A DNA stretch of 64,000 bases from Candidatus Saccharimonadales bacterium (GTDB lineage: Bacteria > Patescibacteriota > Saccharimonadia > UBA4664 > SCTI01), in assembly GCA_035479795.1 (NCBI GenBank), contig DATIII010000008.1, forward strand, positions 94,487 to 158,486, in the 5' to 3' direction. The notes beneath the pieces are model-generated. The model did not search any database and was not told the DNA's origin. It was given only the letters and a program-made list of their open reading frames with translations. Positions within the stretch are counted from its first letter, which is position 1, and each line of letters starts with the position of its first letter. Positions 1,889 through 18,535 of this stretch are shown here, one piece after another. Made by a program: the position numbers and the translations under genes.

Positions 1889-3334
1889 TTACTTCTTAAG
1901 CTTATCCTTAAGAATCTCATTCACCATCGGCGGGTTGGCCTGACCTTTAGATAGTTTCATTACCTGGCCAACTAAGAATCCAAGGGCCTTGGCCTCACCT
2001 TTTTGGTAATCCGCTACCGGTTTTGGATTATCTTTAATCACTTGATCCGTCCAGGCTTCTAGCTCGCCCGCATCAGATTGCTGCAACAGGCCCTCACGCT
2101 CCGCCACATGATGCGCACCTTCATCGTTTTCCCAGAGCATAGCAAGCAAAGCTTTGGAATTTGTAGAACTTAGCTTGCCGGCCGCTACCATTTCACCCAC
2201 CGCTGCCACGGTCAGCGAGGACACGTCGGATTCTCTCAGTGACTTGCCCTTGGCCTCAGCCAGACGTAGCATGTCGCCTACCAACCAGTTAAAGGCAAAC
2301 TTGGCCTGCTCGGGGTTTTCAATGTTTAACTGCAGCCAAAGTTCCGCGGCTTCAATGTTTGCCACCAGAGTTTCAACCTCCCGGCCAGAAATGCCAGCAC
2401 CAGCCAGCTCCTGCCGGAGCTCCATTGGCATCTTTTCTGGCATCCCATTACTAGCAACCTTTAACATGTCACTTGTCACCTGTACGGGCGGCAAATCCGG
2501 CTCGGGGAAATAGCGGTAATCATGCGCCTCCTCCTTCGTCCGCTGGCTGAACGTCTCGCCCTTACTTTCATCCCAACCCCGTGTTTCCTGAACCACCTTT
2601 TCACCGGCGTCGAGAATCTCCGCCTGGCGCTTCATCTCATACTCGACCACTCCGGCCACTGCACGGAATGAATTAAGATTTTTACTCTCAGTCCGTGTTC
2701 CGAATTCCTTCTGCCCCGCTAGTCGCAACGACACGTTTACATCAAACCGCATGTTGCCGTAGTACAGGTCACAGTCACTGACTCCGGCATAGCGCATTAA
2801 GTGATACAGTTCCTCGGCATAAGCTTTAGCCTCGGCCGCACTGCGCATATCCGGCTCGCTGACAATCTCGAGAAGCGGTGTGCCGGCTCGGTTAAGGTCG
2901 ACCAGTGAATAATCTTTGCCAGCCGGATGAGTCAGCTTGCCGGCATCAGCCTCGAGATGGGCTCGAGTGATACCGACTCGCTTAGTCTCACCCTCGAATG
3001 GAAACTCCACAAACCCATTGCCAATAATCGGCTCGTCGAACTGAGTGATCTGATAACCACTGGGGCTGTCCGGGTAAAAGTAATTTTTGCGATCAAACTT
3101 GGTATGAAATTCCAACATATCCGAGTAGGCGTTGAGCGCCAAACCGGCCTTTAGTGCCAGCTCCACCGCCGCCTTGTTCAGTACCGGCAGCGCGCCGGGC
3201 AGAGCAATACAAACCGGGCAGACATGGGCGTTTGGCTTGGCCTCACGGCTGTCATTATTACAGCCACAAAACAGCTTCGACTTTGTCGCTAGCTGCACAT
3301 GGGTCTCAATACCAATTACGACTTCGTATTTCAT
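1889..3334 (-). CDS. gatB: Asp-tRNA(Asn)/Glu-tRNA(Gln) amidotransferase subunit B
   Basis: N-terminus MKYEVVIGIETHVQL…CGC and a C-terminal GatB/YqeY domain; 481 aa. Confidence 0.95.
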   Translation of the reverse strand: MKYEVVIGIETHVQLATKSKLFCGCNNDSREAKPNAHVCPVCIALPGALPVLNKAAVELALKAGLALNAYSDMLEFHTKFDRKNYFYPDSPSGYQITQFDEPIIGNGFVEFPFEGETKRVGITRAHLEADAGKLTHPAGKDYSLVDLNRAGTPLLEIVSEPDMRSAAEAKAYAEELYHLMRYAGVSDCDLYYGNMRFDVNVSLRLAGQKEFGTRTESKNLNSFRAVAGVVEYEMKRQAEILDAGEKVVQETRGWDESKGETFSQRTKEEAHDYRYFPEPDLPPVQVTSDMLKVASNGMPEKMPMELRQELAGAGISGREVETLVANIEAAELWLQLNIENPEQAKFAFNWLVGDMLRLAEAKGKSLRESDVSSLTVAAVGEMVAAGKLSSTNSKALLAMLWENDEGAHHVAEREGLLQQSDAGELEAWTDQVIKDNPKPVADYQKGEAKALGFLVGQVMKLSKGQANPPMVNEILKDKLKK

Positions 3335-3888
3335 ATTTGTCTGCCTTCAATAAATTCATACGAAATCCGATCAACTATTTCTCTATGATCTGTAGCCTTT
3401 ATTATTTCTAGTGCCTCATCTTCATACGGTCTGAAACTTTCAGGCAAAATGTTGATCAACTTATTGGCCGCCACACCTTTATCGAACGCTGGATGCCCTA
3501 ACACGCCGAGCCTGAGCAGGTACCATGATGCAATAAACAGCGAGCAGGGGTATTTTTTGTTCTGGACATACTTAACCAATGACTGCTTAGACTTCTCATT
3601 TTTCATAAGGTTAAGAGTTTCATCGCAAAGTGGGATTAGCTGAGATTCCCTGTACATAAAGTCGGGCGCAAAACCTTTCTCGGCCAGCCATTTGCTGTAT
3701 GCCTCATAGTCAAAGCTTGGGTCCGGGAATGAGTAATCATCTACGAGCACTACCAGATTATGGGATTCGCCGGCAGTATCGAGTTTATCTGTGACGGTTT
3801 TTAGTTCATCAATCGCGACTTCGTGTTCTTTCCGAATTTGATCGTTTGTATATATATGAGCATATTCAACTGAGACGTCAGTCTTCAC
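3331..3888 (-). CDS. hypothetical protein; AT-richer insertion inside the gat operon
   Basis: 185-aa ORF overlapping the gatB start by 4 bp; no recognisable motif; visibly lower GC than its neighbours. Confidence 0.5.
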   Translation of the reverse strand: MKTDVSVEYAHIYTNDQIRKEHEVAIDELKTVTDKLDTAGESHNLVVLVDDYSFPDPSFDYEAYSKWLAEKGFAPDFMYRESQLIPLCDETLNLMKNEKSKQSLVKYVQNKKYPCSLFIASWYLLRLGVLGHPAFDKGVAANKLINILPESFRPYEDEALEIIKATDHREIVDRISYEFIEGRQI

Positions 3889-4307
3889 AACGCCCCCTTC
3901 AGCTCTGACATAATGGCATCGAATGTCTCATCTGAAATCTCAGCAACTTGCATTTGAGTCTTGAGAGGCCAGTCAATGTCGGTCATCTTGGCGCCGGCAA
4001 CCTCTACCGGCCTGGAATATCGGGGGACGAAGTGGAAGTGAGGGTTCGGGTCCTTCATCATAAAAGCAGCATAATTGTATTTTTCAGCTCCGAAAACTTT
4101 TGCGGTAATATGCTCACTGAAAGCTGAAACCTCCGCAAATTCCGCCCATTCTTCGGCCGATAATTCGCCGAAGTTTGATACATCTGACTTTATCGCAAGT
4201 ACTAGCGTGCCAGCGGTTATCTGTGTTGGACGCAGTAAAACGACCCAGTATTTAAACTCCTTGAGCAGAGTCCTTGGATAACCCCGTGAAATAATCGTTT
4301 GGTTCAC
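3885..4307 (-). CDS. HIT-like family protein (putative nucleotide hydrolase/transferase)
   Basis: …NPHFHFVPRY… resembles a histidine-triad-like motif; 140 aa; translationally coupled to flanking genes. Confidence 0.45.
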   Translation of the reverse strand: MNQTIISRGYPRTLLKEFKYWVVLLRPTQITAGTLVLAIKSDVSNFGELSAEEWAEFAEVSAFSEHITAKVFGAEKYNYAAFMMKDPNPHFHFVPRYSRPVEVAGAKMTDIDWPLKTQMQVAEISDETFDAIMSELKGAL

Positions 4308-4729
4308 AGCGCCCCCAGATCTTTAAGCGCCTGATAGTAGGCCGCCACTGCCTCGTGGGCTTGCTTCGGCACCAAGTCAAAAGTGACTTCGTGGGCCAGG
4401 GCGTTGCGGAGTTTATGGGCCTCCCAAACGGCATTACGATTGCTGAGATTTTTTTGGGCGCGCTTGAGCCGCTCGGCCATGGTTTCGCCACCATAACCAG
4501 ATTGGCGCATGACGTAGTCGAGTAATTTGTCGGCTTCAGCCACGGCACTTTTCAGGTTGGACCCGGTGCCCGAATTCATAGCTTGAATAGCCTGCCAGCG
4601 CTGATGCACCAGCTCTTTATTAACATGCGCCTTCTTGCCGCCCACCTTTTTTGGTGCAGTCTGAGAGCCAGAAACCACGGCGAGCACTAACAAGCCAGCA
4701 GCCAGGACGGCAATCAAAAACCAGATCAT
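4304..4729 (-). CDS. hypothetical membrane-anchored protein
   Basis: 141 aa with an N-terminal TM helix; overlaps the gatA stop by 4 bp. Confidence 0.45.
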   Translation of the reverse strand: MIWFLIAVLAAGLLVLAVVSGSQTAPKKVGGKKAHVNKELVHQRWQAIQAMNSGTGSNLKSAVAEADKLLDYVMRQSGYGGETMAERLKRAQKNLSNRNAVWEAHKLRNALAHEVTFDLVPKQAHEAVAAYYQALKDLGAL

Positions 4730-6132: not shown

Positions 6133-6421
6133 TATTAAGTACCCGCTTGACCCTATACTGCCCATCTTCAAAGTCGGGAGCGTTCAGTTTGAGGTCGTCG
6201 TAGCTCAAACCCTCCCGAACCTCGTCTTCACGCCAAACATCGACCAGTCCCGTGACTTGATCGGTTGGCTCGACCCCCTCAACATCAACTTCCTGGAGCT
6301 GTTCGACAAAGCCAACAATTTTAGCGAGCTCGTCGGCTAATTTGCTAACTTCGGCCTCCTGCAAGCCCATATTGGCCAGCTCGGCCACGCGGCGGACTTC
6401 ATCCGGAGTGATCTTTGACAT
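6125..6421 (-). CDS. gatC: Glu-tRNA(Gln) amidotransferase subunit C
   Basis: 98 aa, MSKITPDEVRRVAELANMGL…; first gene of the gatCAB operon. Confidence 0.9.
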   Translation of the reverse strand: MSKITPDEVRRVAELANMGLQEAEVSKLADELAKIVGFVEQLQEVDVEGVEPTDQVTGLVDVWREDEVREGLSYDDLKLNAPDFEDGQYRVKRVLNND

Positions 6422-6424
6422 AGG

Positions 6425-6462
6425 TCTTATTGTAGCGATTTAAGGTTACAGGAGCAAAAAAT
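6425..6462 (-). promoter_or_regulatory. putative sigma70 promoter for gatCAB (minus-strand TTGCTC-17-TACAAT); the -10 lies about 7 nt from the gatC ATG, suggesting a leaderless mRNA
   Basis: Reverse complement reads TTGCTCctgtaaccttaaatcgcTACAATaagacctATG. Confidence 0.4.
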
Positions 6463-6491
6463 TGACATTAGCATAACCACGAGAGCATAAT
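6463..6491 (+). promoter_or_regulatory. strong sigma70-like promoter (TTGACA-18-CATAAT) facing into the GC-rich non-coding block
   Basis: ttgacattagcataaccacgagagcataat; divergent from, and overlapping, the gatC promoter. Confidence 0.5.
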
Positions 6492-6496
6492 TCGGG

Positions 6497-7131
6497 GCAT
6501 GAGATGGGGCAATAGCCCTGTAGTACCCAACAAACTTGGCTACTGAGGCGTCGGGTCACCACCGTTCAATGGAATCTCGTCTGCCTCGCCCGCTTGCGCT
6601 TGGACTCCAGTCCCTTAGTGCGTCGGGTTAGGTGTTTTCCGTCTGGAGACGGAGCCGGTAGCCAAAATAACTGCGAGAGACCGGCCTTAGCCGGGATAGC
6701 CCGCTCCATAGGTGAAGCTGCTTATCCGCCCTAGAGCGGATCATGCGCCTCTCGCACCCTCGTGCCGGGACAGGTGGCCATAAGGTTCTGGAGCTTCCAT
6801 AAGGGGAACCTCCACCTGTCTCGGCCGACCACTTCGCTAGAACGATCCCAGCCTACGGGCATGGCCCGGTCTCGCGATAGGCGGGCCGCCCCCCGGCCCG
6901 AAAATGGGTGCGCGCTTTGCGCTGGACCGCGAGCGCGCACCCACCTCTTCGCCGGTTGAAAATCTGGCCATAGTCTCTAGGGGACGAGACTGTTCAGAAC
7001 CGGCGTCGGTGCGGCGGTCCATCACGTCGCAGCGGGGTGCGTGAGTCGTGCCACGCACCCCAAAAACTTTGCCACTGGCAAAGCGGGTTGGTGCGACCTC
7101 GCCAATCTGACTCCGGTTCACCCCGGGGATC
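6497..7131 (+). ncRNA. candidate large structured ncRNA; RNase P RNA (rnpB)-like motifs present but assignment unconfirmed
   Basis: ~630 nt with no plausible ORF on either strand and visibly high GC, bounded by a promoter and an intrinsic terminator. RNase-P-like motifs occur in the expected order: ccgtctggagacgg (P3-like hairpin) at 6636-6649, GCTCCATAGG at 6703-6712, CATAAGG twice at 6767-6773 and 6787-6793 (E. coli M1 has one copy, downstream of its CUCCACC element), AACCTCCACC at 6797-6806, and TTCAGAACCGGCGTCGG at ~6982-6998 (P4 3'-strand-like). Confidence 0.35.
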
Positions 7132-7166
7132 CGAACGACACCGGGGCTGGCGCCCTTCAGCGCCAG
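7132..7166 (+). terminator. rho-independent terminator (GGGGCTGGCGC-loop-GCGCCAGCCCC followed by TTTT)
   Basis: Perfect 11-bp GC-rich stem followed by a T run. Confidence 0.7.
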
Positions 7167-7270
7167 CCCCGTTTTACGTAATTATCCCTCCGTCATTCTC
7201 AGCTCGCCCAACTATCATTCTCGAGCGCAGCGAAGGATCTTTAGAGTCTAAGACTCCAATGCCATTTTTT

Positions 7271-7299
7271 CCCAGGCAGCCAGAGCCTGGGGTTTCTTC
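7271..7299 (+). terminator. second plus-strand intrinsic terminator (CCCAGGC-loop-GCCTGGG followed by GTTTCTT)
   Basis: 7-bp stem followed by a T-rich tract. Confidence 0.45.
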
Positions 7300-7513
7300 C
7301 ACAGCTTTTGAAGTGAGCAAAAGCTGTCCAAAACTGGCCGCGTAGAAGTTCACAGACTTGAAGCACTCCTTAATCCAAACCAATCTGAGCTGCGGAACTC
7401 GCTTCGCTCAAACAGTCCTCGCTTTTACAGATTTGGTTTGGATTGGTCGCTTTCAGGCTGCTCCATACGCGGGGATAGGGGAGGCCTGGATCCTCAATCC
7501 TGGATTCTGGATG

Positions 7514-9535
7514 CTATTTAAGTAGTTTCAGCAGGCCGGTTTCATCAATTTGCTTTGTGCCGTGCTTCTCGGCCTGTTTCACCTTACTTCCACCTGGAGA
7601 ATCGCCAATTATCAGATAGGTTGTATCTTTGGTGACGCTGTTTTGGAGCTTGCCGCCGAGAGCCACGATTTTTTCGCTAGCCGCCTCACGGCTAAATGCG
7701 TCAAGAGTCCCGGTAATCACAAAGCTCTGGCCGGTCAACCGTCCCTCGACCCGTTTACGCTCAACCGGGCGTACGCCAACCGCAGTCAATTTTTCGAGAT
7801 AATTTTGATGTCGCTTCGAATTTAGCCATTCATAGACGCTGCCGGCCACGACTTTGCCAATGCCCGCAACGTCCTGCAGTTCATCCAGTGAGACCTGCCT
7901 GAAGCGGTTAAGTGAGCCAAAGTGATCTGCCAAATCAATGGCAGTCTGCTGTCCAACATGGCGAATACCTAGAGCGTAGATAAAACGATCAAAGCTAATA
8001 TTTTTGCGATCTTGGATCGAGTCGACCAACTTACGAGCCGAAATATCGGCGAATCGCTCTAGCTTTACCAGTTGATCGTAGGTAAGTGAAAACAGATCGG
8101 CCGCGTCCTCCACCAGCTCAGCATCGATCAGCGCCTCCACATTCTTCTCGCCCATCCCCTCAATATCGTAGGCATCTTTGGAGGCAAAATGTACCACGCG
8201 ACCCCACTTTAGCGCGGGGCAATCAAAGTTAACACAACGCCAAACCGCTTCCTCGCTGCCCTTTCCCAGTGGCTGGCCGCAAACCGGACAGTTCTTCGGC
8301 ATTACAAAGGGCTTTTCCTTACCGGTTCTAAGCTTTGGCAGCGGCGCTACCACCTCCGGAATAATGTCCCCTGCCTTCTGGACAATGACGGTGTCACCAA
8401 TCCGAATATCCTTGCGGGCTACCTCGCCGGCATTGTGCAATGTGGCCATTTTGACAGTTGAGCCCGCAATTTTCACAGCCTCGAGCACAGCAAAGGGCGT
8501 AGCCGCACCGGTTCGCCCAATCGACACCATAATCTCCTTCAGGATAGTTGTCGCTTGCTCAGCCGGAAACTTATAGGCTACTGAACCGCGCGGGGCTTTA
8601 CCAACTACCCCCAGGGCGTTATAGATGGCCGTATCGTTTATAGTCGCCACCAGCCCATCGGTGCCATATGGCAGGTCGTGTCGCTTGTCCTCCCACTTAT
8701 GAGCAAACTTCATGATACCCTCGACTCCTTCAACCACCTCGCTATGGGGTTCCACCTTGAAACCCAGTTTGGCCGCCAACTCATGCTGAGCCCCGTGAGT
8801 ATCGAGACCGGGTACATTTGTCGCCAGTGCATATACATGAAAGCTCAGCGGTCTGGCTGCCACTAGCGCCGGATCTAGTTGGCGGATGGTGCCAGCGGCC
8901 GTATTGCGAGGGTTGGCAAACAACGGCTGACCCGCCTCTTCTCGCTCGGCATTGAGCCTACCGAAAACGGCTTTGTACATCATTACTTCCCCACGCACTT
9001 CAAACCGTCCCCGATATACAACATCAGGCACTCCGGGGTCACGACGCAGCACCAACGGTACCTGATCAATCGTCCGAATATTAGCTGTCACATCCTCACC
9101 CGTGCGGCCGTCCCCACGAGTCAATGCCCGAACTAGTAGTCCATCTTCATAAATAACCGCCGCCGCCAAGCCGTCCATTTTGATTTCAACATAAAACTCT
9201 TCGTCCAGGCCAGGTTGTAGCTTTTTAATCCGATCGACCCACGCCCTAGCCTCGGCTTCGTCAAACACGTCTTGCAGGCTAAGCATGGGCGCAGTGTGGG
9301 CTACAGCCGCAAACTTGGAGCTCGGCTTACCCGCTACTCGCTGGGTCGGGGAATCAGGTGTAATTAGGTCTGGAAACTGATCTTCCAACTGGCTGAGCTC
9401 ATGTTTAAGGCTGTCGGCCGCCGCCTCGCTCATCGTCGATTTGTCTAGCACATGATAGTAATAACGATAGTCATTAATCTGCTCGCGCAGCTTGGCAATC
9501 CGCTCCGCCGCCTGGTCTTTCTCAGGCAGCGGCAT
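7514..9535 (-). CDS. ligA: NAD-dependent DNA ligase
   Basis: 673 aa with KMDGLA adenylation motif, zinc-finger Cys cluster (CPVCGQPL…C) and HhH/BRCT C-terminus. Confidence 0.95.
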   Translation of the reverse strand: MPLPEKDQAAERIAKLREQINDYRYYYHVLDKSTMSEAAADSLKHELSQLEDQFPDLITPDSPTQRVAGKPSSKFAAVAHTAPMLSLQDVFDEAEARAWVDRIKKLQPGLDEEFYVEIKMDGLAAAVIYEDGLLVRALTRGDGRTGEDVTANIRTIDQVPLVLRRDPGVPDVVYRGRFEVRGEVMMYKAVFGRLNAEREEAGQPLFANPRNTAAGTIRQLDPALVAARPLSFHVYALATNVPGLDTHGAQHELAAKLGFKVEPHSEVVEGVEGIMKFAHKWEDKRHDLPYGTDGLVATINDTAIYNALGVVGKAPRGSVAYKFPAEQATTILKEIMVSIGRTGAATPFAVLEAVKIAGSTVKMATLHNAGEVARKDIRIGDTVIVQKAGDIIPEVVAPLPKLRTGKEKPFVMPKNCPVCGQPLGKGSEEAVWRCVNFDCPALKWGRVVHFASKDAYDIEGMGEKNVEALIDAELVEDAADLFSLTYDQLVKLERFADISARKLVDSIQDRKNISFDRFIYALGIRHVGQQTAIDLADHFGSLNRFRQVSLDELQDVAGIGKVVAGSVYEWLNSKRHQNYLEKLTAVGVRPVERKRVEGRLTGQSFVITGTLDAFSREAASEKIVALGGKLQNSVTKDTTYLIIGDSPGGSKVKQAEKHGTKQIDETGLLKLLK

Positions 9536-11676: not shown

Positions 11677-12231
11677 CTAAAGCTTAACTTCGACTGGCTT
11701 ATCGATCTCCGCTTGGTTGTCGACTCCAAAGAATTCGCGAGCCTTAAAGCCCAACATGCCACCAAACAGGTTGGTCGGAAAAACTTGCAGCTTGGTGTTG
11801 AAATCACGGACATTACCGTTGTAGAAGCGGCGAGCCGCCTGAATCTTATCTTCGGTATCCACCAGCTCATCCTGTAGGGCTTTGAAGTTTTCGTTAGCCT
11901 TTAGCTGTGGGTAGGCCTCGGCCACGGCAAATAGGCTCTTTAGAGTACCGGCCAGCTGGTTTTCAGCCTGAGCCTTGTCCGCCATTCCGGTGGCGCCCAT
12001 AGCGGCACTGCGCGCGGCGCTGACATCAGAAAAGACCTTAGATTCGTGCGTGGCATAACCCTTGACCGTGGTGACCAGGTTAGGGATCAGATCGTACCGG
12101 CGCTTCAGCTGGACATTAATGTCGCTCCAGGCCTCGTCCGTCCGGTTCTTTGACTGAATCAGGCTATTGTAAACACCAATAACCCCAATCAGGATTACGG
12201 CTAATATTGCGATTACGATCCACATCGTCAT
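11677..12231 (-). CDS. lemA: LemA family protein
   Basis: N-terminal TM helix followed by a conserved LemA core (…NSLIQSKNRTDEAWSDINVQLKRRYDLIPNLV…RRFYNGNVRDFNTKLQVFPTNL…). Confidence 0.85.
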   Translation of the reverse strand: MTMWIVIAILAVILIGVIGVYNSLIQSKNRTDEAWSDINVQLKRRYDLIPNLVTTVKGYATHESKVFSDVSAARSAAMGATGMADKAQAENQLAGTLKSLFAVAEAYPQLKANENFKALQDELVDTEDKIQAARRFYNGNVRDFNTKLQVFPTNLFGGMLGFKAREFFGVDNQAEIDKPVEVKL

Positions 12232-12300
12232 GGTTTTGTACCTTGTTATTTTGGCTTATTATACCATTTTTGTGAGGTATTTGTATCTCAAAATACTACA

Positions 12301-12327
12301 CGCCCCCTCTAGTGAAAGAGGGGGCGC
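12301..12327 (-). terminator. strong GC hairpin (GCCCCCTCT…AGAGGGGGC) at the downstream end of the GC-rich island operon, just upstream of the lemA start
   Basis: ~9-bp perfect stem; the minus-strand read-out is followed by GTGTAGTATTTTGAG. Confidence 0.5.
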
Positions 12328-12329
12328 TG

Positions 12330-12692
12330 TTACTCGCGGAGGCGGGTAACGTCGAGGGTGACGCGGCTGACGTCGTCGATCTCGTTGCAGAGGCGCTTCG
12401 AAAGCTCCTCCATCCGCTTGAAAAAGTCCTCCTCGGGCTCCCCGTCATCCGGACATGCAGTAACCATCACGACCTTGCTGACATGAGGCTCATCACCCTT
12501 AACGCCTTTGGTCCTCAGCCGCGGCGGGCACCAGACCTCGAACGGACGGCCAGCCAGCTCATCGGCGATGATCAGCTTGGCAGCCCGCTGCACCTCACGG
12601 GCTCTCATGGCCGGCCTCGCAGGTCCCACTTCAGCCAATCCCAGCCGACAATCATCCCGACGGCAATTACTCCAGCGATTAGCCCGAGCCAA
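12330..12692 (-). CDS. hypothetical protein (GC-rich island); a shorter form may start at Met12617
   Basis: Minus-strand ORF tiling with the island operon; charged, protein-like composition. The overlapping plus-strand ORFs look like high-GC shadow frames. Confidence 0.4.
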   Translation of the reverse strand: MARANRWSNCRRDDCRLGLAEVGPARPAMRAREVQRAAKLIIADELAGRPFEVWCPPRLRTKGVKGDEPHVSKVVMVTACPDDGEPEEDFFKRMEELSKRLCNEIDDVSRVTLDVTRLRE

Positions 12693-12808
12693 GAATCGGA
12701 GGCAGCGACCGCCAAGGCACCTGGCAAGCTAGCCATGGCAGCGACAACTAGCCAGTAGTGCCTCTGACGCATGTAGGTCCGGAAATGGAACTTTCAGATT
12801 CTTCAACA

Positions 12809-13312
12809 CTACCGACTCCTCTCATAGGGGTTCTCCTCGGCCAGCTTGCGGGCGCGCTTTTCGATAATGCGCTCCTCCACACCGGTCAGCCGCATATTCG
12901 AAGGATGATGGCTGTCGCTCAAGACATAGCCGATGTAGATCCAGCAAAGACAGTCGAACAGATACTGGGAGCCATGATTGTTCAGGCCGTCACGGTTGGC
13001 TTTCCAAACTGCGTCTGCATGAACCCAGATTTCATGCGGAACCTTTGGCTTACCGGGGGTTCTTGCGGCGCTCTGAATGACCTTGAGCGTGCGCAAAACA
13101 TGATCACTGGACGTCAGTACGACCCTGACATCCCTTGCCTCGTCGGCGCTGCTTACAACCTCGACATGACGCTTGAACCATTCAGCACCCACTGACTGAC
13201 TGAGTCCATTGAGACTCACCCCAGCCTTTTCGGCAACCTGGCCCAAAGTGGCATTACCGCACAAATCATGCAGCGCCAGCAGAATCTGCTTCTGCCTAGT
13301 GTTTAGGCCCAC
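12809..13312 (-). CDS. HTH DNA-binding protein (LuxR/sigma-region-4-like N-terminal HTH), GC-rich island
   Basis: GTG start preceded by GAGGTGAGGAA; N-terminus …TRQKQILLALHDLCGNATLGQVAEKAGVSLNGLSQSV… is HTH-like. Confidence 0.5.
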   Translation of the reverse strand: MGLNTRQKQILLALHDLCGNATLGQVAEKAGVSLNGLSQSVGAEWFKRHVEVVSSADEARDVRVVLTSSDHVLRTLKVIQSAARTPGKPKVPHEIWVHADAVWKANRDGLNNHGSQYLFDCLCWIYIGYVLSDSHHPSNMRLTGVEERIIEKRARKLAEENPYERSR

Positions 13313-13327
13313 TTCCTCACCTCGCTT

Positions 13328-13897
13328 TCAGAGTTGGATTTGGCTTGCGCCGGGCCGAAAGATGGGCTCATGTTCACCCCATCCGGGCTGGCCGCGGCAG
13401 TCGCTCACGATGCCGTCGATCTCCACCCGGCAGATAGGGCAATGAGTCTTGCCCTCGGCCACCAACGAGTCACGTAGCTCCAACGGCCGGTCAGCCAGCT
13501 CACGACGGATCTCATGCCAACGCTGCTCCACGTCTTCCAGGGCTCGCCCCAATGCCCCACGAAGCCGGCCAAGATCGCCAAACGGAAAGCCCTGCCCACC
13601 GGTGGCCGACAGGTAGGAGCGGCCAGTATCACCAATCGGGTCTATCTGACTGAGAGCTTGAGTCAGATCGACATGGAGCTGCCGCCAAGGGGTAGTTCTG
13701 TCTAGATCGTCTTCGCGCCAGCGGATGGCCGAGGTCCGACGAGCATCGACCGATGCCGGCGTGCCGCGTAGCTCGAGCATGCGGGTGCACGGCAGCGGTT
13801 CACCACAGCCCTCGCAGACCGGCCGGTAATTCATAGGTCGATGGCCCTCAGCAGCGGCCGGATCAGGCAGGGTTGACGTCAGAGTTGGTGGCGCCAT
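13328..13897 (-). CDS. zinc-ribbon protein (two CxxC…C knuckles), GC-rich island
   Basis: Strong RBS AAGGAG 7 nt upstream; motifs CEGCGEPLPC and CPICRVEIDGIVSDC. Confidence 0.5.
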   Translation of the reverse strand: MAPPTLTSTLPDPAAAEGHRPMNYRPVCEGCGEPLPCTRMLELRGTPASVDARRTSAIRWREDDLDRTTPWRQLHVDLTQALSQIDPIGDTGRSYLSATGGQGFPFGDLGRLRGALGRALEDVEQRWHEIRRELADRPLELRDSLVAEGKTHCPICRVEIDGIVSDCRGQPGWGEHEPIFRPGASQIQL

Positions 13898-13918
13898 TAG
13901 TTTCTCCTTTTCAAGGTT

Positions 13919-14410
13919 CTATGCCCACACCAACTGGTATGGAACTTTCTTTTGTATCCGCTCGATTGCCTCGTCCAGCAGCTTGCCCAGATTGTAGGGT
14001 TTCGGCTGGCTGGCGTTCCACAGGGCGTATCTGATTTGCCCTGCCGAAAAGCCCATGAAGCCAGCAATATCCCGCGGCTCCAATGCGGTCAGCTGATCGG
14101 CCAAGAGGATCGTCCACATCCGTGCCCAATCCTCCATGCCTTGACGCCCCTTGGGGAGACGAACGGGGTTTACGGGATAGGAACCACAGATGTCTTGAGC
14201 GATGGCCGTCAGGACGTCGTGGCCCAGATCGATCTCGGCCACGGCCTTGAGGTGGTTTTCGCGGCCTCCCTTATTCCAGATTGAGTAGCCCAGACAGGCG
14301 GCATCAAAACAGTTCCGGCACAGCCGGATTCCCTTGTACTTCTCGACTGCCCGAGGCGGCCCCTTGGTCCCCCAAGGGCAGCTCTCGCATTTTCCCTTGG
14401 GAGGCATTCT
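13919..14410 (-). CDS. zinc-ribbon plus putative C-terminal HTH protein, GC-rich island
   Basis: Start moved to the internal Met (MPPKGKCESCPW…CRNC…) with RBS GAGGTGA, because the ORF-track N-terminus is simply read-through of tRNA-Leu. Confidence 0.5.
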   Translation of the reverse strand, partial: RMPPKGKCESCPWGTKGPPRAVEKYKGIRLCRNCFDAACLGYSIWNKGGRENHLKAVAEIDLGHDVLTAIAQDICGSYPVNPVRLPKGRQGMEDWARMWTILLADQLTALEPRDIAGFMGFSAGQIRYALWNASQPKPYNLGKLLDEAIERIQKKVPYQLVWA

Positions 14411-14436
14411 CACCTCGTTTTGGTATTGGTGTTCAC

Positions 14437-14465
14437 AGATTAGATAAAGCCGACAATTATTGCAA
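14437..14465 (-). promoter_or_regulatory. putative promoter of the island operon (TTGCAA-17-TAATCT), abutting the tRNA-Leu 3' end
   Basis: Reverse complement reads TTGCAAtaattgtcggctttatcTAATCT. Confidence 0.3.
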
Positions 14466-14467
14466 AT

Positions 14468-14553
14468 TGGTGGGAGAGGTGGGACTCGAACCCACAAGCC
14501 CGTAAAGGCAGCGGATTTTAAGTCCGCCGTGTATACCATTCCACCACTCTCCC
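14468..14553 (-). tRNA. tRNA-Leu (anticodon UAA)
   Basis: Manual fold: 7-bp acceptor stem GGGAGAG/CTCTCCC, anticodon arm GCGGA-CTTAAAA-TCCGC, long variable arm, T-loop GTTCGAGTC, encoded CCA. Confidence 0.85.
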
Positions 14554-14568
14554 TGGAGGCACCTAGGG
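14554..14568. repeat. 15-bp direct repeat of the tRNA-Cys 3' end (tggaggcacctaggg), immediately 5' of tRNA-Leu(UAA)
   Basis: Exact 15/15 match to 14688-14702; looks like an att-site or integration-scar style duplication. Confidence 0.7.
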
Positions 14569-14687
14569 TATGTCGCTTCGCGACCTCCTTGCGGTGCTCG
14601 GAACATGCCTGAGCAAGCTCGGCGCGTTCCTGCGCTCCTCATCCACCGAACCCTGGGTTTCGCTTCCCCAGATCGATTAACTCTAAT

Positions 14688-14761
14688 TGGAGGCACCTAG
14701 GGGAATCGAACCCCTGTAAAAGGTTTTGCAGACCTCTGCGTAACCACTCCGCCAAGGTGCC
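14688..14761 (-). tRNA. tRNA-Cys (anticodon GCA)
   Basis: Manual fold: acceptor stem GGCACCT/AGGTGCC, anticodon arm GAGGT-CTGCAAA-ACCTT, T-loop GGTTCGATTCC, discriminator U plus CCA. Confidence 0.85.
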
Positions 14762-14884
14762 AACGATAAGATTATACATTGGCGCTATCAGATATAAAAC
14801 GCTATTGCCTAGCGGCATTGCCAAGACGCACCGAGGATGTCATAATCGGTATACGAGTATGCCCCACAAACCCAGGAGGGACAC

Positions 14885-15276
14885 TGGTGAAGACTCGATT
14901 TAACCGTAGTGAAGGCTTCGAAGCACTCGTCGCCCAGGTTCACCGGCAGTTTGCCACCGACCCGAGGACGACCCACGAGATCTGCGAAGCAACCACTACC
15001 CCTCGCGCCAAGTGCGAGAGGTGGATAACGCCCTTTGGCGGCAGTACCTGCGTTCAAATGCTGCTCGCCGAATACGACACAGGTGGCCGGCTCTGCCAGC
15101 TGTCCGTCATCTCGGCCGATGGCCGCTGGCACGAGCTGGTTTCTGAAAACAACGGCGACGCCCCTGCTGGCAGACTGTCGCTTTGGACCGATACGGAATT
15201 GGCCCGAGCCACTGCAGCCAAGCTGCGACACTGTTTTAGGTGGCAGCGCCGCCCTAGCCTGGCCCTCGCGGCCTAG
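14885..15276 (+). CDS. hypothetical protein (GC-rich; GTG start after AGGAGGG)
   Basis: Plus-strand ORF with a strong RBS; the competing antisense ORF lacks one. Confidence 0.4.
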
Positions 15277-15318
15277 AACGCCATACAGCCGTTCTCTGAC
15301 ATGGATGTTGGAGGACGG

Positions 15319-16068
15319 CTAGTTGTTTTTATAAGCTTTTTGCCTGGCCGAGTGGCTTACGAAGTCAGAAAGTAACATCAGCCAGCTGTCATCCTGCTTG
15401 TACAACCATTCCGGATGAAACTGGGTCGCCATAATATAATGATTGCCATCTCCTTCCAGCACCTCAATGACGTTATCAGGAGCCATGGCCGCAATCTTTA
15501 AGCCCGGGGCAACGATATCCACGGCCTGATTATGCAGTGAGTTTACAGTCACGACATCACGTCCCATGATCTGGCGCAAGTGGGACTGCGGCCGGACGTG
15601 GATTTCATGAACAGGCAGGTCGAATTGTTTCTTTTTAAATGACTCGTCATGGTCGATCTCGGCATGACTCTGCGACGGGATGGTCTGATGCAAACTCCCG
15701 CCCATTACCACATTCATAATTTGAAGGCCGCGGCATACGCCAAACACCGGCTTTCGATCCAAAACACACCAACTGGCCATTACCATTTCGGCTTTATCCA
15801 CCCGAAGACTCGGCCGGTCAAGTTTACGTTGTATTTCCTGATGATAGAAACCCGGATCAATATCGCCGCCGCCACAGAACAGCATGCCGTCCAGAGTTTG
15901 ATAAATGCGCTTTAGGCTGGCAGTTTCAACCAACGGTACCAAAACCGGGGCTCCCCCGGCCGCCTCGATGGCTTCCACATAAGCCCCCAAAACGCCTTGG
16001 CGTTGCGGATACCATGACCGAGCCTCGTCATCCACCTCGCGGCAAACAATTCCCACCAGCGGTTTCAT
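15319..16068 (-). CDS. class I glutamine amidotransferase-like / peptidase C26 (gamma-glutamyl hydrolase family, PuuD-like)
   Basis: GVCRGLQ nucleophile elbow and a downstream His; 249 aa. Confidence 0.75.
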   Translation of the reverse strand: MKPLVGIVCREVDDEARSWYPQRQGVLGAYVEAIEAAGGAPVLVPLVETASLKRIYQTLDGMLFCGGGDIDPGFYHQEIQRKLDRPSLRVDKAEMVMASWCVLDRKPVFGVCRGLQIMNVVMGGSLHQTIPSQSHAEIDHDESFKKKQFDLPVHEIHVRPQSHLRQIMGRDVVTVNSLHNQAVDIVAPGLKIAAMAPDNVIEVLEGDGNHYIMATQFHPEWLYKQDDSWLMLLSDFVSHSARQKAYKNN

Positions 16069-16141: not shown

Positions 16142-16732
16142 TTAATGGAACTTCTGGCCGGTCTTGAGCATTTCCATGATTGCATCCAGCCGTTTTTGGC
16201 GAGTTTCCGGCTTTATGGCGGTGTTGAGGCGGAAAGCGATGGCGTATTTATTGGCTTTGCTAAGCGTATTGTAGAACTCCTCGGCCTCAGGGTACCGTGA
16301 AAGCAGTTTTAAGAAATCAGCCGGCGTCTCCATATTGGCGGGCGAATCATAGGCGGCCTCCCAGCGACCATCAGTTTTGGCCGCCTCGATCTGCACTAAA
16401 CCAGCCGGACGCATTTTTTTATTGGCGATCAACCGCTCCACGTTTTCAATATTCTTCTTCGACCAAATGCTGCGCGGTCGCCTGGGCGTGAACTTCTGGA
16501 TAAAACTAATGTCGTCGTACTTGTTTACCAGGCTATCAATCCAGCCGAAACATAAGGCAACATCGACTGCTCCTCCCCAGTCGAGGGTGGGTTTGCCAGA
16601 TGCTTTTTTATAAAAGCGCAGCCAAACCCCAGGCTCCTTAGAATGATTTGCTTCAAGCCATGAATAAAACTCATCCCCGGTCTTAAAACTTTTTATAACT
16701 AATCCGTCTTTTTGTAGTTTTGGCATAATCAA
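16142..16732 (-). CDS. YdeI/OmpD-associated family protein (DUF1801/1905-like)
   Basis: 196-aa ORF whose N-terminal region (MIMPKLQKDGLVIKSFKTGDEFYSWLEANHSKEPGVWLRFYKK…) matches the YdeI-like family from memory; a domain search was not run. Confidence 0.5.
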   Translation of the reverse strand: MIMPKLQKDGLVIKSFKTGDEFYSWLEANHSKEPGVWLRFYKKASGKPTLDWGGAVDVALCFGWIDSLVNKYDDISFIQKFTPRRPRSIWSKKNIENVERLIANKKMRPAGLVQIEAAKTDGRWEAAYDSPANMETPADFLKLLSRYPEAEEFYNTLSKANKYAIAFRLNTAIKPETRQKRLDAIMEMLKTGQKFH

Positions 16733-16805
16733 ATATTACTCCCCTACTCCTGGAAATGTCTATGTGGCTATGCTACAATTTGACGGTTCGCCAGCCTGGC
16801 GACGC

Positions 16806-16892
16806 GCGGACGTGGCGGAATGGTAGACGCGCCAGCTTGAGGGGCTGGTGACCGCTTAGGTCGTGGAGGTTCAAGTCCTCTCGTCCGCACCA
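16806..16892 (+). tRNA. tRNA-Leu (anticodon GAG)
   Basis: GCGGACG…CGTCCGCACCA; anticodon arm CCAGC-TTGAGGG-GCTGG; long variable arm. Confidence 0.85.
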
Positions 16893-16960
16893 GTAAGCAA
16901 TTATTTGTAATTTATCACCCATAGGTCATCATAGAAGTGACTCGACCGAAGGAGTGGCAC

Positions 16961-17506
16961 ATGAAGTTTGGGCGGCAAGGATCCGAAGCCGCCTTAATGC
17001 GGCGCAAGGTCCTATTTCTACTCGTCAACTCACGTGAGCCTAAGCGCCCTCGCGAACTAGTTGAGATGGGCTGGGGCAAGGATAGCGGCCACATCATCGA
17101 GCAAAAGGTAGGTTTGGCGCTGCGTTGGCTAAAAGATGCCGGGCTAGTCAGGCAGGTTCCGAACGAAACTCTGACATGGCCAAAATGGGAGGTCAACGAG
17201 CAAGCCCGAGTGATTTTTGCCGGAGAAGCTGAAACCGAATCTCTCCCGATCGCTATACCCGATCGAGACGTCTACCCCGAGATTAACGACGTCAACGGCG
17301 AAGACGGCATTCGCTTTGTCGGGGTGGATCAGGACCAATCGCGTGATGACGGAGATTTGGGCGTCCTAATCGAGGGCTACCACCCCGAGGTGATGCTGAC
17401 CCCGGAGGGAGCTGAGGAGTTAGCTGACCGGTTGCGCCAAGCTGCTGCCCGGGCTCGGTTTGAGCAACAGGGCCGTGGCGCTATAGGAGGCGAGGCTTCA
17501 TCGTGA
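16961..17506 (+). CDS. hypothetical protein with an N-terminal winged-helix-like region (GC-rich)
   Basis: Starts MKFGRQ…; followed by a GGGAGGGG-tttcgg-CCCCTCCC hairpin. Confidence 0.45.
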   Translation: MKFGRQGSEAALMRRKVLFLLVNSREPKRPRELVEMGWGKDSGHIIEQKVGLALRWLKDAGLVRQVPNETLTWPKWEVNEQARVIFAGEAETESLPIAIPDRDVYPEINDVNGEDGIRFVGVDQDQSRDDGDLGVLIEGYHPEVMLTPEGAEELADRLRQAAARARFEQQGRGAIGGEASS

Positions 17507-17530
17507 GGGAGGGGTTTCGGCCCCTCCCTT
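17507..17530 (+). terminator. GC hairpin after the 16961-17506 gene (weak U tract)
   Basis: GGGAGGGGtttcggCCCCTCCC. Confidence 0.4.
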
Positions 17531-17569
17531 GAAGCATCATCAAGCTATCTGTATGATTAATCAGGTTTA

Positions 17570-17646
17570 GGGCGATTAGCTCAGCTGGCTAGAGCACCTC
17601 GTTTACACCGAGGGGGTCGGGGGTTCGAATCCCTCATCGCCCACCA
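17570..17646 (+). tRNA. tRNA-Val (anticodon UAC)
   Basis: GGGCGATTAGCTCAGCTGG…; anticodon arm CCTCG-TTTACAC-CGAGG; T-loop GGTTCGAATCC; CCA. Confidence 0.85.
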
Positions 17647-17661
17647 TGCTATAATCTGCTT

Positions 17662-17883
17662 ATGTTTAGAAAATTCGATAAACACAAGCCATATTTTAGA
17701 GCTGTGGCCATGGCCACTATCTTGTGTGGAGCAGCCATCTTTGCCCTCGGAGTGGTTGAATTGCTATTCAACTTGTTCGGGACTACCAACTTTGTTAGCC
17801 CGGTAGGCAAGATAGCAGTTGGTCTAGTTGCGACCTCTCTAGGCTACATCCACCTCGAGCTCGAACAAATCCGCATCAAGTAG
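17662..17883 (+). CDS. small membrane protein, hypothetical
   Basis: 73 aa with two hydrophobic helices. Confidence 0.4.
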   Translation: MFRKFDKHKPYFRAVAMATILCGAAIFALGVVELLFNLFGTTNFVSPVGKIAVGLVATSLGYIHLELEQIRIK

Positions 17884-17941
17884 CTACTACTCAAGCGCTA
17901 TTTGTAAAAGTTGCCGTTTCTCGGTATGATTTTGTGGTTGC

Positions 17942-18017
17942 GGCGCCTTAGCTCAGCTGGTAGAGCAGTGGCCTGAAGAGCCTCGTGTCGCTGGTTCGAG
18001 TCCAGCAGGCGCCACCA
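17942..18017 (+). tRNA. tRNA-Phe (anticodon GAA)
   Basis: GGCGCCTTAGCTCAGCTGGTAGAGC…; anticodon loop CTGAAGA with one U-U mismatch in the anticodon stem; CCA. Confidence 0.8.
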
Positions 18018-18018
18018 T

Positions 18019-18094
18019 GCGGGTGTAGCTCAGTTGATAGAGCGCTTCCTTGCCAAGGAAGAGGCCCCGGGTTTGAGTCCCGGTACCCGCACCA
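18019..18094 (+). tRNA. tRNA-Gly (anticodon GCC)
   Basis: GCGGGTGTAGCTCAGTTGATAGAGC…; anticodon arm CTTCC-TTGCCAA-GGAAG; only 1 nt after tRNA-Phe. Confidence 0.85.
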
Positions 18095-18336
18095 AAAGGG
18101 AATTATAAAAGTGACTGACAAGATGGAAATCATACAACAAAGTCATAAGAGGGCAGAGGAATTCATTACCTTGGACGGGGCGATGCAGGCTCCGGGCGCG
18201 TCATAGGCTATTTGTTGTATACTTATCGCAGCATATAAGCCCGCGTACAGGGCGAATCCTAATCCCCAAAGGGAGTAATTCGCTAGCGGCTCTGCGCAAA
18301 ATTCGGGGACTTTTATTAATTAATAGGAGTCTTGCG

Positions 18337-18498
18337 ATGTCGAAAATGACAAAGGAAGAGCAGCTCGACTGGTACGAGCGATCGCATAAGAATTGGCGAT
18401 CGTGGGGTAGCTGGTTTAGCTGGGGGTCTCCGGTCGGGCTTGGATTATTTTTTATCCAAATAGCCGCTGCGATCTGGATTCTAACCCAAGCGTTCTAA
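18337..18498 (+). CDS. small Trp-rich membrane protein (53 aa, not in the ORF track)
   Basis: AGGAG RBS followed by ATG; MSKMTKEEQLDWYERSHKNWRSWGSWFSWGSPVGLGLFFIQIAAAIWILTQAF; followed by a terminator. Confidence 0.35.
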   Translation: MSKMTKEEQLDWYERSHKNWRSWGSWFSWGSPVGLGLFFIQIAAAIWILTQAF

Positions 18499-18499
18499 G

Positions 18500-18535
18500 A
18501 AAATAACACCCGCTGAACCGGGTGTTATTTTTATC
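18500..18535 (+). terminator. rho-independent terminator (AATAACACCCG-loop-CGGGTGTTATT followed by TTTAT)
   Basis: 11-bp stem followed by a T run. Confidence 0.7.

Follow-up and report, generated by a model that had tools for sequence, protein, structure and literature searches.

A GC-rich five-gene operon between tRNA-Leu(UAA) and lemA in a Candidatus Saccharimonadales genome: a candidate accessory module, apparently old within a small clade

Background

In Patescibacteria, orphan operons and variable stretches next to tRNA genes are widespread. Here we analyze one such region, positions 12301-15300 of a 64,000-nucleotide stretch of DNA (the whole of which is called the window below) from a metagenome-assembled genome (MAG) of Candidatus Saccharimonadales (TM7, Patescibacteria). 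The segment is rich in GC, contains the genes for tRNA-Leu(UAA) and tRNA-Cys, and carries a minus-strand operon of five small genes that we name, in order of transcription, A, B, C, TM55 and D. With moderate confidence, we interpret the segment as an old, clade-restricted and fast-evolving accessory operon, probably regulatory, that occupies a variable slot of a tRNA cluster and is not a mobile element.

Several described systems resemble this locus in part. tRNA-associated genomic islands adjoin tRNA genes, are atypical in composition and patchy in presence, and fill their slots with cargo that differs by species, all of which is also true of the segment. The segment differs from them by the absence of an integrase, of flanking att repeats and of mobility genes, by the fixation of the operon at one site with expression signals conserved across diverged lineages, and by the cargo found in the same slot of other species, which consists of ordinary cellular genes. 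Type II toxin-antitoxin systems share with the operon compact overlapping small genes with the DNA-binder first, fast evolution and a patchy distribution; however, no component of the operon falls into a known toxin or antitoxin family, and its downstream protein derives from a dimerisation domain.

At the level of individual proteins, the closest described relatives are the MarR/ArsR winged-helix regulators for C and the GMP synthase GuaA for D. The predicted fold of C contains the winged helix-turn-helix (HTH) common to MarR and ArsR proteins, whereas its sequence matches neither of the two profiles, its winged helix is placed at the extreme N-terminus without the flanking dimerisation helices of MarR, and its C-terminal domain, marked by an SDxHHPS motif, has no known relative. 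The alignment of D with GuaA covers the last ~70-85 residues of the enzyme, among them the GVxGDxRxY/H loop and the SxRIxNEIxxVxRVxxDIT helix-strand. In contrast to GuaA, D is a stand-alone protein of 92 amino acids (aa) that has neither the amidotransferase nor the ATP-pyrophosphatase (PP-loop) domain, is shortened at the C-terminal end, and is encoded after a DNA-binding protein, as predicted for C, outside a purine operon. No account of stand-alone GMP_synt_C proteins, of their pairing with winged-helix proteins, or of the locus analyzed here was found in the literature searched; the stand-alone family and this pairing are thus undescribed there, and they are rare.

Results

The C-D core is located at the same place beside lemA in three closer metagenomic lineages, designated X, Y and Z, all of which are known from short metagenomic contigs. 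In lineage X (L085-L088; flanking LemA and HtpX 85% and 83% identical, respectively), the tRNA genes are followed by a 55-aa gene with a hairpin, the promoter, the overlapping genes C' and D', the terminator and lemA. The order in lineage Y (L084 and L089; LemA 92% identical across the 49 N-terminal residues seen) is the 3' end of tRNA-Leu(UAA), a small gene with a hairpin, the promoter, A', C'', TM', D'' and lemA, and lineage Z (L104) has A, C and D. The occurrence of the core beside lemA in at least three related lineages implies that it was present before their divergence. Synonymous sites are saturated in the module and the flanking genes alike, and the proportion of nonsynonymous differences (pN) is well under the synonymous one (pS) for every gene. 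The nonsynonymous divergence (dN) is 0.24-0.66 for the module genes as against 0.09-0.26 for the flanks. The proteins of the module evolve 2-5 times faster than those of the neighbouring genes. Given the shared position in three lineages, the 83-92% identity of the flanking proteins and the saturated synonymous sites, the cluster looks old and vertically inherited within a small clade. In lineages X and Y, too, the GC content of genes C and D exceeds that of the flanking genes, so the GC-richness persisting in relatives is no mark of a recent arrival.

A promoter of the form TTGCAA-17-TAATCT had been proposed in a first-pass annotation of this DNA, made from the sequence alone. It is indeed present, beginning 2 nt past the 3' end of tRNA-Leu(UAA); it agrees with the consensus at 7 of 12 positions, which is below the threshold of the promoter scan, yet the block ATTTGCAAT...TTATCTAAYCTG is kept in the window, in lineage X and in lineage Y. 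The terminal GC hairpin from the same annotation was recovered by the terminator scan, and the terminator together with the lemA promoter is kept in the window and in both of these lineages, with one compensatory stem-pair change in X. As a separate observation, a small open reading frame (ORF) with a hairpin of its own stands ahead of the module promoter in lineages X and Y (L084 207-380; L085 426-593). It encodes a basic protein of 55-57 aa rich in Gly, Gln and Asn, has no Pfam match, and is absent from the window, whose promoter abuts the tRNA gene.

The operon extends over 2.2 kb and has its own promoter and terminator (Table 1). It had been described as a four-gene operon with 15-25 bp spacers, and the operon itself stands while the count does not. 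The last product, a supposed unknown of 95-120 aa, in fact comprises two proteins, the 55-aa membrane protein TM55 and the 92-aa protein D, whose genes overlap by 4 nt, which brings the number of genes to five. The spacers from A onwards measure 21, 15 and 36 nt and are followed by this overlap. By codon-usage score, the annotated frame ranks first of six for all five genes; C and D score like host genes, and A, B and TM55 score low.

The product of gene C is a putative winged-helix DNA binder with a novel C-terminal domain, as judged from its predicted fold. The winged helix comprises residues 1-75 with no helix ahead of it, and is followed by a three-helix domain with the invariant motif WIYxGYxLSDxHHPS...ExRIIExRARxLA. 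A phmmer search of 1.84 billion representative proteins, the set used for all relatives counted below, returned three relatives of C, two of them full-length with 46-47% identity and one a weak N-terminal match. In Pfam, C has only sub-threshold matches to HTH_24 (E 0.071) and Sigma70_r4 (E 0.06). A search of viral folds gave generic winged helices only, with E 0.058 or worse, and C had no match in JGI metagenomes.

D is, by sequence homology, a stand-alone relative of the C-terminal dimerisation domain of GuaA and not a GMP synthase, which it cannot be because the ATP-pyrophosphatase and amidotransferase domains are missing. This corrects the earlier statement that none of the products belongs to a family that can be named. 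The Pfam domain GMP_synt_C (PF00958) is matched by 5 of the 5 members of the D family with a best E of 8e-12, the copy in the window scoring 24.4 bits, which is under the gathering cut-off (GA 27); D also matches the NCBIfam model guaA_Cterm. The profile of the D family aligns to residues 447-518 of the 527 residues of the GuaA structure 3tqi in PDB (E 2.8e-13), and D is without the last ~9 residues of GuaA. Four relatives of D were identified by phmmer, and at 40-57% identity the family still carries the motifs of GuaA. A scan of JGI metagenomes with D gave 13 weak matches of 28-34% identity, which are presumably guaA genes, and further profile searches with the C and D families added nothing beyond fragments of GuaA. 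Comparison of partial GuaA proteins with the window by tblastn revealed no additional GuaA-like stretch. As a side observation, L090 encodes a D-like protein of 124 aa (P0011) within positions 3168-4014 (GC 51%); the genes of several membrane proteins lie upstream of it, the surroundings are unrelated, and there is no C-like gene.

The remaining products vary between the lineages: A and TM55 are optional additions to the core, B is unique to the lineage of the window, and E129, encoded on the far side of the tRNA genes from the operon, is a separate orphan. A has a CxxC-19-CxxC arrangement at its N-terminus (C7/C10 and C30/C33) and an HTH-like C-terminal stretch, EPRDIAGFMGFSAGQIRYAL. Its single relative in the protein collection is 64-69% identical, and its KGKCESCPWG motif is retained in lineage Y. 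No family profile of Pfam, PHROGs or NCBIfam matches A significantly. In the A homologue of lineage Y (L084 480-520), a run of GGGG replaces the GGGGG of the window and creates a 1-nt frameshift right after KGKCESCPWG. The shift may be genuine or an artefact of the assembly. TM55 has two hydrophobic segments; its homologue in lineage Y has 69 aa and 41% identity (E 1.5e-7), and the gene is absent from lineages X and Z.

B contains two distant CxxC pairs (C28/C31 and C153/C156) and a central amphipathic-helix region, and its gene has a GC content of 0.637. It has no relative except itself in the protein collection, and lineages Y and Z have no copy of it where it would stand, after A and before C. 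The CxxC pairs of A and B may be those of zinc ribbons, as first described; neither protein has a significant profile match. A match of B to a designed helical protein in PDB (E 1.2e-6) was rejected as compositional rather than homologous. E129 likewise matched only itself, and the coding score does not distinguish its sense and antisense frames. The plus-strand gene reported across the tRNAs is present as an ORF; its start is the GTG at 14887 and not 14885. No paralogy was found among the proteins of the GC-rich segment.

The segment lies between LemA on one side and a Peptidase_C26 protein on the other, as noted before, and both tRNA genes proposed there were found. An identical segment is contained in three independent assemblies of one and the same organism: the MAG GCA_964594805.1, a second NCBI MAG, and the Logan assembly of SRR9179560. 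The second NCBI MAG carries locus tags VLF21_03250-03285, every one of them annotated as 'hypothetical protein'.

Table 1. Features of the GC-rich segment and its lemA border (positions in the window)
Feature	Position	Strand	Details
lemA	start at 12231		
lemA promoter	12258-12266		extended -10 TGGTATAAT; next after operon terminator
Intrinsic terminator	12300..12327	-	terminator scan; 11-pair hairpin, 8 G-C pairs
Gene D, 92 aa	12330..12608	-	PF00958 homologue
Gene TM55, 55 aa	12605..12772	-	ORF; stop overlaps D start (ATGA)
Gene C, 167 aa	12809..13312	-	GTG start
Gene B, 189 aa	13328..13897	-	ORF; ribosome binding site (RBS) present
Gene A, 162 aa	13919..14407	-	ORF; RBS GAGGTGA
Operon promoter	14437..14465	-	-35 TTGCAA (14460-14465), 17-nt spacer, -10 TAATCT (14437-14442)
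tRNA-Leu(UAA)	14468..14553	-	ARAGORN, Rfam; upstream border of operon
tRNA spacer, 134 nt	14554..14687	-	between tRNA-Cys and tRNA-Leu
tRNA-Cys(GCA)	14688..14761	-	ARAGORN, Rfam; promoter-like site 14798-14771
Gene E129, 129 aa	14887..15276	+	GTG start; promoter-like site 14818-14846; strong RBS AGGAGGG; terminator 15287-15320

The atypical composition claimed earlier was borne out by calculation. The GC content of the segment is 58.6% against 51.9% for the window, the top value among all 3-kb windows (+3.7 standard deviations, SD), with local peaks of up to 63%. Its dinucleotide signature distance is the maximum of the window (80 vs 39 +/- 14), and its tetranucleotide correlation is ~3 SD low. 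Part of the GC excess is driven by amino-acid usage, with Arg, Pro, Trp and Cys raised and Lys, Asn, Ile, Phe and Tyr lowered. The other part comes from third codon positions. Their GC content (GC3) reaches 0.72 in A and 0.77 in D and lies at 0.64-0.65 in B, C and TM55, whereas the window averages 0.58 +/- 0.065. The shadow ORFs that had been noticed on opposite strands of the segment were found and measure 110-148 aa.

Searches for mobile elements, phages and defence systems gave no sign of a recently integrated element or its remnant, as which the segment had first been described. None of its six products has an integrase or recombinase match in Pfam, PHROGs or NCBIfam. The 20-nt 3' end of tRNA-Leu(UAA) is not duplicated, even when up to 3 mismatches are allowed, and no flanking repeats that bound the segment were found. 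Scans of IMG/VR with A, C and D detected no relatives, blastn against phage genomes matched the tRNA-Leu gene only, and the proteins of the segment have no match in PHROGs, in PADLOC at E up to 1, or among the toxin and antitoxin families of Pfam. The alternative offered at first, an origin from host (Actinobacteria) or phage DNA, was not supported either, as no actinobacterial or phage protein was matched beyond the generic GuaA domain, and the oligonucleotide profile is like that of GC-richer sister Saccharimonadales.

At 14554-14568, directly against the 5' end of tRNA-Leu(UAA), the last 15 nt of tRNA-Cys are repeated exactly (CCCTAGGTGCCTCCA). This repeat cannot bound the operon because it brackets only the 119 nt between the two tRNA genes. 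The spacer between these genes is 134 nt long in the window vs 1-10 nt in the closest relatives; it has no Rfam match and no significant fold, and the att-like repeat is in no sister locus. The repeat and the spacer together look as if a former site-specific insertion or a local duplication had left them behind.

The slot was compared across other Saccharibacteria species in a LemA-based scan that yielded 80 loci with LemA 61-78% identical, 60 of which could be scored for the gap between tRNA-Leu(UAA) and lemA. The order tRNA-Leu(GAG), tRNA-Cys, tRNA-Leu(UAA), lemA, htpX is widely conserved among them, and tRNA-Leu(UAA) is followed by lemA in about 60. The gap between the two is 57-152 bp in 30 of the 60 loci and holds inserts of 600-4900 bp in 29. 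The inserts consist of unrelated ordinary genes, such as SPFH/Band 7 (in five species), EamA and trehalose synthesis genes. The 58 insert ORFs match 49 Pfam families, the 25 commonest of which include no integrase. At L004, the upstream C26 gene is shared, and a different gene occupies the E129 slot and a different 2.2-kb insert stands ahead of lemA. All 80 loci lack relatives of A-E. The same gene set at this locus in all relatives, with native-like composition, had been named as a result that would speak against the island; this applies only in part, since the closest lineages share the core and the species with LemA at or below 78% identity are without it. The description of small, probably DNA-binding and functionally undescribed proteins in a tRNA-associated slot that varies between genomes was upheld.

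Other variable or atypical stretches were observed in the same tRNA cluster and elsewhere in the window. The gaps from tRNA-Cys to tRNA-Leu and from tRNA-Leu(GAG) to tRNA-Cys vary across Saccharibacteria too. The second tetranucleotide outlier of the window, 16500-18500, contains tRNA-Leu(GAG), tRNA-Val, tRNA-Phe and tRNA-Gly together with a 189-aa ORF (16937-17506; weak DUF6907 match only) and a 73-aa ORF, and probably represents further variable slots of the same cluster. Between gatC and ligA there is a 1.1-kb gene-free gap (6421-7514, GC 57%) with blocks conserved in lineage X (L085:6990-7610), including a stretch containing CCCGGCTTA. The gap has no Rfam match at E up to 1 and could represent either a structured RNA that has diverged or the remains of a gene. 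Three small ORFs (141, 140 and 185 aa) lie between gatA and gatB, inside the gatCAB cluster (3331-4729; L001 12129-13527); they have no Pfam match, and one has 42% GC.

Discussion

If the segment is an old accessory operon with a regulatory function, C would bind DNA, in the simplest case the conserved region around the promoter of its own operon. D, whose translation is usually coupled to that of the preceding gene, would act as a dimeric partner or modulator and not as an enzyme, since it has neither the ATP-pyrophosphatase and amidotransferase domains nor the C-terminal lid of GuaA. A may be a second, Cys-rich DNA binder, to judge from its motifs, and the module as a whole would be a small transcription-control unit. 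A more specific proposal is that C and D form a new two-protein regulator confined to a small Saccharimonadales clade, in which a GMP synthase domain is reused as a dimeric sensor or partner that may be tuned to guanine nucleotides. D keeps the GVKGD loop, which we take to lie near the XMP (xanthosine monophosphate) site in GuaA structures, and Saccharimonadales are probably host-dependent for purines. In this specific form we regard the proposal as a long shot.

Some of the data weigh against the interpretation as an old regulatory operon. The regulatory role rests on one predicted fold, that of C, and on the sequence motifs of A, the AlphaFold2 model of which is unusable (mean predicted confidence, pLDDT, 37). 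D-like proteins occur without C as well, namely P0011 (in L090) and P0012, and the lack of a C-like gene next to P0011 indicates that the stand-alone GuaA-domain family is not strictly bound to a winged-helix partner. For B and E129, relatives are missing and the coding scores are low or ambiguous, so that these two may not be functional genes. Vertical descent as opposed to repeated insertion at one site is not strictly proven, because the related lineages are represented only by short metagenomic contigs. Finally, the tetranucleotide profile of the segment fits 8 loci of GC-richer sister Saccharimonadales better than its own genome, whereas 38 of 40 equal-length host pieces used as a control match their own genome best. 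Since the composition is atypical and closer to GC-richer sister genomes than to its own, an ancient horizontal origin, perhaps from a GC-richer relative, is likely; such an origin would not be recent, but 'native' is the wrong word for the segment.

One explanation that we consider unlikely, yet the most serious of those set against an old resident operon, is that the segment is the remnant of an integrated element (a prophage, an integrative and conjugative element or a genomic islet) which entered at the tRNA genes and lost its integrase, leaving its regulatory region behind. Besides the oligonucleotide profile, which fits other Saccharimonadales better than its own genome, this origin would account for the adjacency to tRNA genes, for the atypical GC, dinucleotide and tetranucleotide composition, for the variability of the slot across species, and for small HTH and Cys-rich proteins, which are typical of the control regions of such elements. 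The exact duplicate of the tRNA-Cys 3' end, 119 nt downstream of tRNA-Cys, looks like an att scar; however, it encloses only the sequence between the tRNAs, and the operon has no copy of the tRNA-Leu 3' end at its border. No integrase is encoded, homologues are missing from IMG/VR, phage genomes, PHROGs and viral structures, and the inserts of other species in the same slot are ordinary genes. Despite the saturation of synonymous sites between the lineages, the module is fixed at a single site, and its promoter and terminator are shared.

It is quite improbable, in our judgement, that the operon is an addiction, defence or toxin-antitoxin-like module with C as the antitoxin or repressor and the coupled TM55 and/or D as the toxic or effector part. 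The small overlapping genes with a DNA binder first, the fast evolution and the patchy distribution agree with such a module, as do the coupling of a small hydrophobic protein to D in two lineages and the membrane protein upstream of the D-like gene in L090. On the other hand, nothing in PADLOC or in any toxin or antitoxin family of Pfam is matched, the domain to which D is homologous serves dimerisation and not catalysis, lineages X and Z have no TM55, and C is bigger than typical antitoxins. The least probable explanation, which we hold to be very unlikely for the segment as a whole and more probable for B and E129 taken alone, is that the DNA is largely non-functional, consisting of chance ORFs in a GC-rich spacer, of decaying pseudogenes or of an assembly chimera. 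B and E129 stand alone in the protein collection and their coding scores are low or ambiguous, long shadow ORFs exist on both strands, D resembles a guaA fragment, and A' of lineage Y has a 1-nt frameshift in a G-run. Nevertheless, A, C, TM55 and D stay open at saturated synonymous divergence with pN well under pS, the ribosome binding sites, promoter and terminator are conserved, the D family retains its GuaA motifs at 40-57% identity, and the identical segment was recovered from three independent assemblies.

Conclusions

The analysis carries a caution for genome scanning, as a GC-rich segment of orphan genes next to tRNA genes mimics a fresh island and yet appears to be an old resident whose odd composition has outlasted divergence to saturation. 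It also marks the stretch of tRNA-Leu(GAG), tRNA-Cys, tRNA-Leu(UAA) and lemA as a series of recurrent variable slots across the class, and it defines two tiny families seen so far in no more than a handful of related genomes: i) predicted winged-helix proteins with the SDxHHPS domain, and ii) stand-alone homologues of the GuaA dimerisation domain. If C and D do work together as a regulator, they would represent the recruitment of an enzyme dimerisation domain into gene control in an epibiont with a reduced genome.

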